Source: a virus
Lineage: Duplodnaviria; Caudoviricetes
Length of the DNA: 64,000 bases
Virus record (IMG/VR): IMGVR_UViG_3300013382_000004
Reading direction: 5' to 3' (one strand)
In this document: piece by piece, positions 30,847 to 46,140 of the stretch
How positions within the stretch are numbered: position 1 is the first letter of the stretch
Layout of the letters: each line of letters starts with the position of its first letter
Made by a program: the position numbers and the translations under genes
The notes under the pieces: generated by a model
Told to the model about the DNA's origin: nothing
What the model saw: the letters and a program-made list of their open reading frames with translations, nothing else
Database searches by the model: none

Positions 30847-30979
30847 GCATTGTTAAAGCCCATCATCATAATTGATGGTGGGCTTAATAGAGTGCTTAGT
30901 GTGAATAAGCTCTCTGCTTAGTAATAGATGACCTACATAGTCTATAACTAAGTATTAAATTATGAAAGGAGTGATGCAA

Positions 30980-31054
30980 ATGTAGAAAATTACTTTTGTT
31001 GATTACGCTCTCAACGTAGTCAGTATTGTTATTCTCAAGAACCACAACTTCTAA
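30980..31054 (+). CDS. Cassette 2 peptide M[TAG]KITFVDYALNVVSIVILKNHNF
   Basis: GAAAGGAG RBS; homology to the other copies. Confidence 0.7.
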
Positions 31055-31101
31055 GAATAATTGAATATCGAGAGGGTTGTGTAGGCAACTCTCTCACCAT
31101 C

Positions 31102-31130
31102 ATAATAACACATAAATAAATGTTTGTCAA
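31102..31130 (-). promoter_or_regulatory. Antisense sigma-A promoter, cassette 2
   Basis: TTGACA-17-TATTAT. Confidence 0.7.
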
Positions 31131-31164
31131 GGAAAAGACAATAAAACCAGAAAGGAATCGAAGT

Positions 31165-31566
31165 ATGTATATCAATATGTCTTCTGTCATTATGGTCGCT
31201 GTTGCCCTTGCAATCGTTATGATTGCATACGGCGTTATCATCAATATCGAAGCAATCGCTCATAAGAAGAGCATGAATCCTCGTGCCATGTTCATCATCA
31301 TGGCTATCCTTGCTATTTCTGTCGTTGTTCTTATCTGTAATATTGATTACAGTAAGAGCATCCCCGCTGAAATCTTCACTAACGAGGACGTAACTGGTGC
31401 ATATAACGCCGGTTACGACAAAGGCTATGAAGAAGCCTATTCCAGTACAGAAGATTGGTTTAATGGTCTTCAGTCTGTTACAATCTGTGAAGATGGGACA
31501 ACAATTCATCTCATTGATGGTAAGGGTGAAGAGTGGGTTCTAGTAAGTGATAATTATCAGAACTAA
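31165..31566 (+). CDS. Membrane protein (two TM segments)
   Basis: GAAAGGA RBS; two hydrophobic stretches; AYNAGYDKGYEE. Confidence 0.7.
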   Translation: MYINMSSVIMVAVALAIVMIAYGVIINIEAIAHKKSMNPRAMFIIMAILAISVVVLICNIDYSKSIPAEIFTNEDVTGAYNAGYDKGYEEAYSSTEDWFNGLQSVTICEDGTTIHLIDGKGEEWVLVSDNYQN

Positions 31567-31710
31567 AACCCAAAGTACCGACCCCTCGACCTGAGCAAGT
31601 CGTTAAACTACTCAAATATAACAGAAGGAGAGACCCAACACATCTCTCCTCTGTAGTAAATAAGGGCCTACATCCTTATTTACTTTTATCTTTCTTCAGG
31701 AGGTTAAATA

Positions 31711-31785
31711 ATGAAGAAAATTATTAGCATTAATTATTTCTTTAATGTTGTTGTATGCATTATCCTCAAGAATTACAACTTCTAA
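31711..31785 (+). CDS. Cassette 3 peptide MKKIISINYFFNVVVCIILKNYNF (AAG at codon 2)
   Basis: AGGAGG RBS; the only copy open in code 11. Confidence 0.7.
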   Translation: MKKIISINYFFNVVVCIILKNYNF

Positions 31786-31847
31786 GAAGAGTAATTATCT
31801 TTCCCTAAATAAGAGAGGTGTGTAGGCATCTCTCTTATTATATTTGA

Positions 31848-42818: not shown

Positions 42819-43499
42819 ATGAAGAACGAAACTATGATTTACGCTAAGTATCAGGAAACTTATATGAACGATGAATTCATTGGCTATGAAAGAGCTAAGA
42901 AGTTCATTAATAACTGGGATTCTTGGGAGAAATGCTTCCCTCATGAAGTTCTTGTTTGGCTTGTTCAGAAGAAAATTAAAATGAAGGATGTCTGTGCTAT
43001 TCATTATATGCCTGTGTCCTTTGGCTTAAATAATTATTATGAAGGTCGTTATGAACGTCTTCCTCAAATTAAAAAGCACTTCTCTTTTACCGAAGAAAGA
43101 GGTGGATGGACAAGAGAACACGTTGAGGATGCTTATCAGTATATTATCCCTGCTCGATATCAAAGCGTTCATCTTAGAGACGCTTTTAAGGAAGCTATCT
43201 ATATGGCTTATCCTTATATGGGAAAATATAAGTTCGATGCTTATGTTCCTGATTATAGCACTTCTACTCAAGATATTTACATCACAATGATTTACAAACT
43301 GGATGGTGAGGAAGTCAAAACAAGTCTTTATTGTCCTCTTGAAGCATTGCTTAAGAAAGACCCTGACCTTATTTATAAAAGACATTATGGCTATAATGCT
43401 GATTATTACAGATGCCAACCTGAACGTGCAAAAATTGTCCTTGGTGTTCTCAATAGCCAGAAGTACAAAGCTTTCTGCAAAAAGGTGAAGGAGGGTTAA
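42819..43499 (+). CDS. Hypothetical protein
   Basis: GAAAGGA RBS, about 226 aa. Confidence 0.7.
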   Translation: MKNETMIYAKYQETYMNDEFIGYERAKKFINNWDSWEKCFPHEVLVWLVQKKIKMKDVCAIHYMPVSFGLNNYYEGRYERLPQIKKHFSFTEERGGWTREHVEDAYQYIIPARYQSVHLRDAFKEAIYMAYPYMGKYKFDAYVPDYSTSTQDIYITMIYKLDGEEVKTSLYCPLEALLKKDPDLIYKRHYGYNADYYRCQPERAKIVLGVLNSQKYKAFCKKVKEG

Positions 43500-43570
43500 G
43501 CCCTCCTCCTTTTAATATATAGTCACTACAAACAATAATAAACATTTGAATTAAGAAAGGAAATTTGATT

Positions 43571-45187
43571 ATGTCTAACACTGCTATCGCCAACTTCTAC
43601 AAGTCCACCACTCACGATTATGAGAGCTTCTTCACCAAGTATGAACCTTCTGAAAAGGAAAATGAAATCAATGCTCGTATTAAAGAACTTACTGACAAAC
43701 TTGAAGCAGCTAAAGTTGAAATGACCAAGGTTCAGAACAGTCGCTACAATAAGGATTTCACTTCTCATGGTAAGAAGATTGTTGTTCATTACAGCTCTAA
43801 TCGTTCTGATATTGAATTGTATTTTGACTTGTTTACTGGAACTCCTGTAAACCGTGATTCTCTTGAGCCTCAGACCTTTATCATCAAGGAGGTTAATTTG
43901 AAAGGTGGTGACTTTTGGGTCAATGTTGGTTATTGCTTCTCTCTTGGTGCTGTTGTGTCTCGTCATTATAGATACAAAATTGCTACTAATAATGCTTTTT
44001 GCAATTTTGTTATGAACGGTGAACAGTTGATTCCTATTCTTGAACCTGATGCCACTCCTATTAGCGATGGTGATGTTCCTGCGTTTGAATCTGGTATGGG
44101 GGATGATGCCACTTATTTTATTTCTCAGATTTGGGATATCCCTGTTGAGAATATCGGTCCTAAATATACTTTTAAAAGATTAAGAGAATCTTTGAAGAGA
44201 AATAAATCCACTGAAATTATTTTCCGTACTGCTCCCAAGTCTGTACAGGAATCTTTGCTTATGCGCAAAATTGAAACTGCCGAACCAGTCTACAAGCTTC
44301 TCAATCTTACTAAGGCAGAATTCAAAGAAGCCTGTGATAGAAATATTATTGGCGACTGGACGAACTTACAAACCATCATTAGGTCTGCTTTCAAGCAGGA
44401 TGATAAAAATTACTATTACGGTAGTAACGATGACATGACTCTTGAAGATTTTTGTCATTACACTAATCAGGAATGGTTTGATATCATCGAGAAAGCAAAA
44501 TATTGGGACGAAGAATTTGCTTTTAATCATGTCCAGATGGGCGGCTATGGTAATAATGCATTGGAATTAACCTTTAGCGCATATTTAAGAAACAATACTT
44601 CTTATAGAAATGCAAAATTCTATCATTTCTATACCTTTGGTAAGTTCATGGATTATGTTTGCGAAGAAGCTGTCAATCAGGGCTTTAAAACTTTGAATTC
44701 TTTTATGACTGAGCTTCGTGACTATCTTGATATGTGTACTTCCATGGATATCAAACCCACTCTTTATAGTTCTTATCTTAAGCAGACTCATGATATTACT
44801 TCTCGTAACTATGAAGTCAAACTTACAGAGGAACAGGCTGAGATGTTTGAGAATGCCTATAAAGGCTTCGAAAACTATACTACCAAAGATAAGAAGTACA
44901 GTGTCATTCGTCCTAAAAATGCTGATGATGTTAAGCACGAAGGTTCTGAACTCAATCATTGTTGCTCTTCTTATATCGGAAAGGTGTTGAAAAGAAATTG
45001 CCTTATCATCTTCCTTCGTAAGACGGATAAACTTGACAAGTCTCTTGTTACTATTGAGCTTAATAACAAAGCTATTGTTCAAGCAAGAGGAAATTCTAAC
45101 CGTTCTATTAGTGAAGAGGAATATATTGCTATTTGTGAATACGCCAAGGAAAACAAGCTTAAGGTTAATGTTACTCCTCGTGATTAA
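43571..45187 (+). CDS. PcfJ-like protein (second copy)
   Basis: RDYLDMC..LKQTHD..EGSELNHCCSSY..IFLRK..LVTIE..VQARG..NR. Confidence 0.75.
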   Translation: MSNTAIANFYKSTTHDYESFFTKYEPSEKENEINARIKELTDKLEAAKVEMTKVQNSRYNKDFTSHGKKIVVHYSSNRSDIELYFDLFTGTPVNRDSLEPQTFIIKEVNLKGGDFWVNVGYCFSLGAVVSRHYRYKIATNNAFCNFVMNGEQLIPILEPDATPISDGDVPAFESGMGDDATYFISQIWDIPVENIGPKYTFKRLRESLKRNKSTEIIFRTAPKSVQESLLMRKIETAEPVYKLLNLTKAEFKEACDRNIIGDWTNLQTIIRSAFKQDDKNYYYGSNDDMTLEDFCHYTNQEWFDIIEKAKYWDEEFAFNHVQMGGYGNNALELTFSAYLRNNTSYRNAKFYHFYTFGKFMDYVCEEAVNQGFKTLNSFMTELRDYLDMCTSMDIKPTLYSSYLKQTHDITSRNYEVKLTEEQAEMFENAYKGFENYTTKDKKYSVIRPKNADDVKHEGSELNHCCSSYIGKVLKRNCLIIFLRKTDKLDKSLVTIELNNKAIVQARGNSNRSISEEEYIAICEYAKENKLKVNVTPRD

Positions 45188-45270
45188 CATTTATCTATAA
45201 CAAATCACAAACACAATTAACAACACATTTAAGCTGACCTAACGGCTATACGGGGAGAAAGGTAAACATT

Positions 45271-45846
45271 ATGACGAACACTAAGATTTATAACAACATG
45301 ACTGTTACCGTCACTTGCAGCGAAAGCGAAGATGTTGAAATGATTAATCTTATCAATAAATTCAAAGAAACTCAGAAAACTCATGAGTTTACTGAGAAAT
45401 CCTATGCACCTAAAATCAAAGCAATTGGTGAGGCTAAATGGATTGTTATTGTAAACCAACTTCTTGAGCTTTGCAAAGTTGCTGAAGAACTTGATATCAG
45501 AAACCAGCTTAGTAACTTTATGCGCATTTCCTTTAATAGAGACGATACTGGCGAACTTTATATTCTTCGCCTCGGATGGTATTCGCCCCTTAACCAGTAT
45601 ACCTTAACTTATGGTTATACAGGCTGCATTTACCAAGATGCTACATTGTGGCCTGTAGAGGAATATTGTCCTAAAAGTGAGCTTGAAGATAAGGATGGCT
45701 GGCTTTCTAAATGGGATGAATATGACATTTATAATAAGTTCCGTTCTAAGCTGATGAAAGAAATTCAGCGTCGTACTGAAATTGAAAATGCAAAAACAAA
45801 TGAAATCATTGACCGTTATAACGAGTTCGCAAAAATTGACGAATAA
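45271..45846 (+). CDS. Hypothetical protein
   Basis: GAAAGG RBS, 191 aa. Confidence 0.65.
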   Translation: MTNTKIYNNMTVTVTCSESEDVEMINLINKFKETQKTHEFTEKSYAPKIKAIGEAKWIVIVNQLLELCKVAEELDIRNQLSNFMRISFNRDDTGELYILRLGWYSPLNQYTLTYGYTGCIYQDATLWPVEEYCPKSELEDKDGWLSKWDEYDIYNKFRSKLMKEIQRRTEIENAKTNEIIDRYNEFAKIDE

Positions 45847-45962
45847 ATAAAATAAAAGAGTGGGTAAGTGTACATCTTACTCACTCTTTTTAAAACTCCA
45901 GCCCCGTAAGCTGTTCATATAAATGAAACCCTTGTCTTAAGGAAGAAAGGAGATGAAAAACC

Positions 45963-46043
45963 ATGTAGAAAATTAAATAGATAAACTACAGATTTAATGT
46001 TTATTATTTCGTGATTGTCTTGACAGGCTTCATGGAAGTTTAA
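45963..46043 (+). CDS. Cassette 7 peptide M[TAG]KIK[TAG]INYRFNVYYFVIVLTGFMEV
   Basis: GAAAGGAG RBS; homology to the other copies. Confidence 0.7.
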
Positions 46044-46111
46044 ATATTAATCTAAAATAACAAACAGTACACATAGGGTCAAGAGGTTACGGGTCTCTTA
46101 ACATTATATGT

Positions 46112-46140
46112 ATTGTAACATATAAAAACATTCTTGTCAA
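46112..46140 (-). promoter_or_regulatory. Antisense sigma-A promoter, cassette 7
   Basis: TTGACA-17-TACAAT. Confidence 0.75.

Follow-up and report, generated by a model that had tools for sequence, protein, structure and literature searches.

Probable kissing-loop closure of small recoded genes in a large gut phage that reads TAG as glutamine

Small-protein genes under antisense control have been described in several forms. In the ibs/Sib type I toxin-antitoxin system of Escherichia coli, paralogous copies of a tiny open reading frame (ORF) are each covered, together with the ribosome binding site, by an antisense RNA with variable recognition sequences (PMC4147584). In hok/Sok and aapA/IsoA, pairing between 5' and 3' regions closes the mRNA of a small protein, which could create an antisense-resistant pool (PMC9841398). 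At IncI/ColIb-P9 repY-repZ an antisense loop, that of Inc RNA, competes with an internal sequence for one target loop, and translation of a leader exposes the partner, forms a pseudoknot and activates the coupled rep gene (PMC4705826). Stop-codon recoding in gut phages has been proposed as a timer of late genes, those for structure and lysis (10.1101/2021.08.26.457843; PMC9523058). All of these bear on a series of mini-genes in the 64,000-nucleotide stretch analysed here (the window) of the virus record IMGVR_UViG_3300013382_000004, part of a large gut phage with a genome of 200-220 kb in which TAG is read as glutamine. The window carries seven mini-ORF cassettes (0-6) and one truncated copy, the unit being, in order, an upstream hairpin (HP1), a Shine-Dalgarno (SD) sequence, ATG, an ORF of 23-27 codons, a downstream hairpin (HP2) and a convergent minus-strand sigma-A promoter (Table 1).

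The cassettes resemble ibs/Sib in their paralogy, tiny ORF, predicted antisense coverage and variable recognition sequences, but they add an internal loop-loop clasp, a proposed amber gate and an early-region site, and have no family match. From hok/Sok and aapA/IsoA they differ in that the contact is a loop-loop pairing of 6-8 bp rather than a long stem, leaves the SD out and has no mok-like overlapping leader. The proposed competition for one target loop recalls ColIb-P9, except that both phage partners are preformed loops, the partner lies upstream of the target and no gene is coupled. With recoded gut phages they share TAG as glutamine and TAG-free early genes, and two relatives carry a suppressor tRNA; a text search of the recoding papers, however, finds no mention of antisense RNA, and mini-genes with an amber second codon in the early region are not described there. 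To judge from sequence, the locus would function in the manner of type I toxin-antitoxin loci with several copies; it cannot be classed among them, as searches at threshold returned no known family of toxins or antitoxins. Literature searches returned nothing on amber-gated, kiss-closed mini-genes and no description of kissing-loop closure around a whole bacterial ORF.

The evidence for the clasp is the match between the two loops of each cassette. An earlier note on this DNA had reported complementary loops at six pairs, a weaker first cassette and joint change between copies, and all three observations hold. The six pairs of cassettes 1-6 lie inside hairpin loops (Table 1), and the loops of cassette 0 (30411-30417/30557-30563) pair over 5 bp plus two terminal G-U; the upstream hairpin of that cassette competes with a long hairpin at 30344-30414. 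Homologous cassettes were gathered by pattern searches from about 25 related contigs and scored for a perfect match of at least 6 bp between a fixed upstream segment (-62..-34) and the downstream loop, the fixed segment replacing an automatic HP1 picker that took the upstream terminator in 7 of 25 families. Such a match, 6-8 bp long, is found in 118 of the 127 family cassettes but in only 14 of the 496 control windows (3%). By family, 20 of 25 match, whereas permutation gives a mean of 4.36 and a maximum of 13, the value of 20 being reached 0 times in 200,000. Unrelated phages that match merely the promoter search yield 3-5 bp in the same test.

Ten distinct loop pairs were found, eight in the peptide family, one more in the genome G005 and one around an unrelated cargo. 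On a tree of 114 cassettes built with the loops left out, loop pairs 2-5 change 17 times upstream, 19 times downstream and 19 times jointly, where about 36 changes would be expected if the sides were independent; the tree is short, with some anchors set by hand, and each position has only 3-4 independent contrasts with support, which all agree but are too few for a sign test. In a MAFFT alignment the HP1 hairpins of different families are not in register and RNAalifold therefore proposed no pairs, hence the anchored tests; Rfam gave nothing at gathering threshold or at a meaningful E-value. The region is A-T rich and repeat-rich, which might suggest chance or a by-product of local inverted duplication, yet only the loops match between HP1 and HP2 while the stems do not, and with the permutation result, the control rate and the coupled changes on the tree such an origin is highly improbable. 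A selected long-range loop-loop pairing very probably exists, and the proposal that it encloses SD and ORF is supported. A divergent 23-amino-acid subfamily of G004-like phages is without the standard kiss (L187:630 (-), L111:1928 (-), L209); at L187 the upstream loop instead matches 9 nt that follow the stop codon immediately, in an H-type arrangement that translating ribosomes would disrupt.

Each cassette is also tied to a promoter on the opposite strand. The pattern is TTGACA-17-TGn-TAnnnT, of the extended -10 sigma-A type that ordinary genes of the phage also use, and 7 of 7 such minus-strand promoters at 29-54 kb of the window stand directly behind a peptide ORF. The predicted antisense RNA starts in the 3' arm of HP2 and would run through ORF, SD and HP1 as far as a terminator, minus-strand terminators being present at some cassettes. 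Since the reverse complement of the HP2 loop is the HP1 loop, a start in the 3' arm of HP2 means that the first hairpin of the antisense RNA would show the loop of HP1.

Loop complementarity by itself holds on both strands, and no cassette has a consensus promoter of its own other than the antisense one, so that the antisense noncoding RNA could be the main product, closed by the kiss, with the peptide secondary. Stem wobbles point the other way: G-T outnumbers A-C 104 to 48 downstream and 53 to 24 upstream, about 2:1 toward the sense RNA. The stem of HP2 extends as far as the antisense -10 box in 50 of 118 copies, and there its outer pairs fall outside the antisense transcript, which thus cannot form them. 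Wobbles within the loops are few and mixed, with three G-U pairs favouring sense (at the cassette with ORF start 30450 in the window and at L183) and a variant at L199:11708 that gives C-A on the sense and U-G on the antisense strand. With the stem bias and the outer HP2 pairs, the kiss most likely sits on the sense RNA. Given further that the peptide is under purifying selection and that the one seemingly ORF-less copy is a decayed ORF, a primarily antisense product is distinctly unlikely. The decayed copy is the truncated eighth cassette, in which the SD and the first 8 codons are deleted; its counterpart in the related genome G002 is intact, which marks it as a remnant rather than an ORF-less scaffold.

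The peptides are real and are coded in the late code of the phage, as their substitution pattern indicates. The ratio of nonsynonymous to synonymous polymorphism (pN/pS) for the 23-27 residue peptides is 0.21 in frame under code 15 and 0.8-1.0 in four of the five other frames. Differences between ORFs are mostly at third positions, substitutions are mostly among I/V/L, K/R and D/N, and no internal TAA or TGA occurs in 109 ORFs. Internal TAG exchanges mostly with CAA/CAG (16 among the listed swaps), and 126 of 147 glutamine codons in the peptides are TAG. Six of the seven window mini-ORFs begin ATG-TAG, and among the 33 copies in five whole genomes 27 contain TAG. The peptides are beta-branched and partly polar, with a grand average of hydropathy (GRAVY) from -0.55 to +1.3. 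They have no PHROG, Pfam or PDB match at threshold and no match in four unrelated phages. The PDB matches below threshold are chance hits to an HA signal peptide tag, and a likeness to the C-terminal hairpin of RelE was supported by no search.

A ribosome protects about 20 nt ahead of the start codon while it initiates and 10-12 nt beyond the stop codon when it terminates. HP1 ends a median of 33 nt before the AUG, and HP2 begins a median of 21 nt after the stop (at least 15 nt in 103 of 118 copies), the enclosed stretch being about 129 nt. Both hairpins are thus mostly clear of the footprint and a ribosome need touch neither, which makes it doubtful that, as the earlier note suggested, a translating ribosome could break the clasp. 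That suggestion belonged to a larger model, in which leader peptide and pseudoknot control the next gene in the manner of ColIb-P9 repY-repZ; in this phage such a switch would act as a sensor of the code switch. One part of the analogy stands: the loop of the predicted antisense RNA is identical to the partner within the mRNA. For a sensor, an amber second codon would be ideal, and some HP2 hairpins are followed by a few T. The remainder does not fit. The kiss partners are hairpin loops outside the ORF, preformed rather than exposed by translation of a leader; the gene after the cassette varies between genomes and is a TAG-free early gene, cassettes occur back to back with no gene between them, and some strains delete the gene between two cassettes. 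No stop codon of a cassette ORF overlaps a downstream start, a promoter lies between the ORF and any downstream gene, and translational coupling is lacking; the peptide sequence is conserved, and an unrelated folded protein of 51 amino acids can occupy the same place. Control of a downstream gene is accordingly improbable.

The enclosed RNA is itself structured. In each of the 25 families the predicted fold of the ORF region is more stable than that of its synonymous recodings (mean z -2.5), and the start codon lies in a hairpin that is 85% paired and shows compensatory T-A/A-T swaps. In many copies this hairpin is accompanied by a second at the stop codon that abuts HP2, an arrangement that, with the comparable 5'-3' long-distance pairing of hok mRNA (PMC9841398), would suit a repressive lock: the kiss would block translation until processing or a read-through ribosome opened it, whereupon the freed HP2 loop would be taken by the antisense RNA and leaky early translation would destroy the message. 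Such a lock is unlikely, however, as the SD is only partly paired in predicted folds (unpaired 0.3-0.7) and lies outside the kiss, and HP2 usually starts beyond a terminating ribosome. The ring geometry, which leaves the ribosome path free, equally accommodates a closed-loop enhancer, in which the kiss would join stop and start and recycle ribosomes for a late burst, its identity with the antisense loop being incidental. Kissing between a 3' cap-independent translation element (CITE) and the 5' untranslated region (UTR) of plant RNA viruses is the precedent (PMC5712577, PMC4820102), and there too kissing loops enclose the coding region; that system, however, is eukaryotic, recruits initiation factors over kilobases and works without antisense RNA. 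The literature searches found no bacterial precedent, a strong SD needs no enhancer and the predicted antisense start keeps a precise place at HP2, all of which leaves an enhancer quite unlikely.

The reading that we prefer, at a rough probability of 0.45, is a type I toxin-antitoxin-like module in which a code-gated, clasped mRNA would form a silent pool shielded from antisense RNA. Early on, transcription that runs on from adjacent early genes would supply the sense RNA, whose successive hairpins the kiss of HP1 with HP2 would close into a ring. The antisense RNA, showing its HP1-like loop first, would seed on the HP2 loop, a seed that the internal kiss would already occupy; the closed mRNA might thereby escape antisense RNA and nucleases and persist. 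Under the host code ribosomes would stop at codon 2 and the stored mRNA would be silent. Once an amber suppressor tRNA became active and the sigma-A supply of antisense RNA fell, a late burst of peptide would follow, the ring of about 130 nt being translated without opening, as hairpins outside the ribosome footprint would allow. Differing loop sequences would keep most copies from cross-talk, and candidate roles of the peptides are host inhibition, lysis timing and superinfection exclusion. In favour of this reading are the covariation of the loops, the sense-strand bias of the stems, the late coding of the peptides and the selection on them, the promoters behind the ORFs, the folding of the ORF regions and the second cargo in the same chassis. 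The clasp is well supported; its purpose we infer.

Several observations weigh against this module. The suppressor tRNA-CUA was not found in G001, the closest genome, and no dedicated sense promoter was found for cassettes 0-4. Codon 2 is TAG in 84 of 109 ORFs, a count inflated by the ATG-TAG patterns used in fetching them, and 13 of 109 ORFs, including that at 31711 in the window, have no TAG and yet keep the kiss, so that amber gating is not universal. Cassettes 1-3 have one loop in common, which makes orthogonality only partial; several peptides, with GRAVY as low as -0.55, are too polar to form the membrane helix that is typical, though not universal, of type I toxins; and if the kiss blocked the antisense RNA fully, the purpose of that RNA would call for kinetic competition.

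An unrelated protein of 51-54 amino acids occupies the same chassis at L199:9439-9591 (G001), L215:6811 and L221:1265 and 3237, and is absent from the window. It has its own 8-bp loop pair (UGACCAAU/AUUGGUCA), an antisense promoter and 1-3 TAG. The 51-residue form is predicted to be a soluble three-helix bundle (predicted local distance difference test score, pLDDT, 92); searches gave only close homologues, no Atlas feature match and no fold that it clearly resembles (best Z 3.8), which is not evidence of a new fold. A wider and more doubtful version of the preferred reading is a swappable chassis, in which a barcoded kissing loop would clasp the mRNA into a translatable ring, antisense-immune once closed, and store unrelated small proteins until the code switch. 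Some cargo may itself enforce that switch, release factor 1 being one conceivable target of inhibition given that five whole genomes of these phages encode no release factor.

Should the module operate as proposed, it would offer a compact test bed for whether phages use recoding to time their genes. Its unit of 250 nt combines a single amber codon with a single antisense promoter and comes in natural compensatory loop variants. A modular lock on expression is also suggested by the exchangeable cargo and by loop pairs that are orthogonal in nature, and peptides so heavily guarded may include new inhibitors of the host or new factors of the code switch.

The features in the window are collected in Table 1. 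The truncated copy, the ATG-TAG starts, the antisense promoters and the context of TAG as glutamine had no place in the earlier note. Independent DNA contigs cover the stretch, which excludes an assembly artefact.

Table 1. Cassettes and adjoining terminator-like elements, in window coordinates (aa, amino acids).
Feature	Position	Strand	Details
Cassette 0 (weak kiss)	30405..30614	+	HP1 30405-30431; ORF 30450-30524 (ATG-TAG, 24 aa); HP2 30546-30574; antisense promoter 30586-30614
Cassette 1 HP1	30915..30954	+	loop CCTACA 30932-30937
Cassette 1 ORF	30980..31054	+	ATG-TAG, 24 aa under TAG=Q
Cassette 1 HP2	31070..31095	+	loop TGTAGG 31080-31085
Cassette 1 antisense promoter	31102..31130	-	extended -10 sigma-A type
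Cassette 2	31655..31876	+	HP1 31655-31684 (loop 31666-31672); ORF 31711-31785 (ATG-AAG, 24 aa, no TAG); HP2 31808-31839 (loop 31821-31827); antisense promoter 31848-31876
Cassette 3	33092..33301	+	HP1 33092-33121 (loop 33102-33109); ORF 33150-33221 (23 aa, 2 TAG); HP2 33238-33269 (loop 33251-33258); antisense promoter 33273-33301
Minus-strand intrinsic terminator	34286..34316	-	would end cassette 4 antisense RNA (about 240 nt)
Cassette 4	34328..34557	+	HP1 34328-34346 (loop 34334-34340); ORF 34380-34451 (23 aa, 2 TAG); HP2 34484-34528 (loop 34502-34508); antisense promoter 34529-34557
Bidirectional terminator-like hairpin	38183..38214		upstream of tandem pair (truncated copy and cassette 5)
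Truncated eighth cassette	38224..38347	+	HP1 loop CCTATA 38229-38234; 18-codon ORF remnant 38238-38294; HP2 loop TATAGG 38328-38333
Cassette 5	38351..38591	+	HP1 38351-38378 (loop 38361-38367); ORF 38419-38490 (23 aa, 2 TAG); HP2 38512-38562 (loop 38535-38541); antisense promoter 38563-38591
Bidirectional terminator-like hairpin	45854..45890		upstream of cassette 6
Cassette 6	45899..46140	+	HP1 45899-45913 (loop 45903-45909); ORF 45963-46043 (26 aa, 2 TAG); HP2 46064-46116 (loop 46087-46093); antisense promoter 46112-46140

Several further observations concern the surroundings of the cassettes. Co-occurring strain contigs skip 30623-30846 and 30901-31066, as would be expected if copies gain and lose genes and parts of cassettes. 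Long hairpins with a conserved internal loop recur directly after early genes (30344-30414, 30845-30899, 33007-33067, 34941-35002); they are candidate RNase III-type processing sites and could create the 5' end of cassette RNAs. Short structured motifs recur just before the SDs of early genes (31570-31612, 38855-38880, 41745-41770, 45232-45260), without an Rfam match. A further SD-ATG-TAG start, at 52577-52591, has only 4 codons and neither hairpins nor an antisense promoter.

The minus-strand late genes of the window are open only with TAG as glutamine (code 15); on the plus strand, the genes at 29.8-53 kb contain no TAG apart from the small ORFs. The comparison genome, G001, is the closest whole record, 214 kb long and collinear with the window at 68-89% identity; its TAG share of glutamine codons is 1/141 in early, 45/532 in middle and 148/1040 in structural genes. 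A suppressor tRNA-CUA is present in the relatives G003 and G005; a relaxed ARAGORN search for tRNAs gave only noise. The window also encodes a YonO-like single-chain RNA polymerase (22357-25218 (-); PMC5467207) with kin in Bacillus, Clostridium and Enterocloster phages. Its gene holds three in-frame TAG, so that transcription of late genes would in turn require the code switch. SD and promoter style suggest a host among the Firmicutes. No similar DNA was matched in INPHARED, and the sole genome match, a single 28-kb contig within a Bacteroidaceae metagenome-assembled genome, is probably mis-binned, given the Firmicutes-like SD and promoter type.

There are signs of a possible second recoding, of CGG to glycine, at window minus-strand genes at 13815, 16006, 22364 and 25095 and at L057:1290-1364 and L055:1290-1365. 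Five CGG codons in late genes mostly align with glycine, CGG alternates with GGT/GGC in the 51-residue cargo, and the tRNA-CCG of G001 has acceptor G1-C2-G3 and U73; CGG in plus-strand early genes aligns with arginine. Among neighbouring genes of the window are two for PcfJ-domain proteins (35673-38027 and 43571-45187), a ParB-like gene (33347-34279) and a DUF932 gene (38890-39894). At the start of the early region (29627-29706), T tracts phased with a 10-bp period may mark bent DNA, a genome end or a packaging site.

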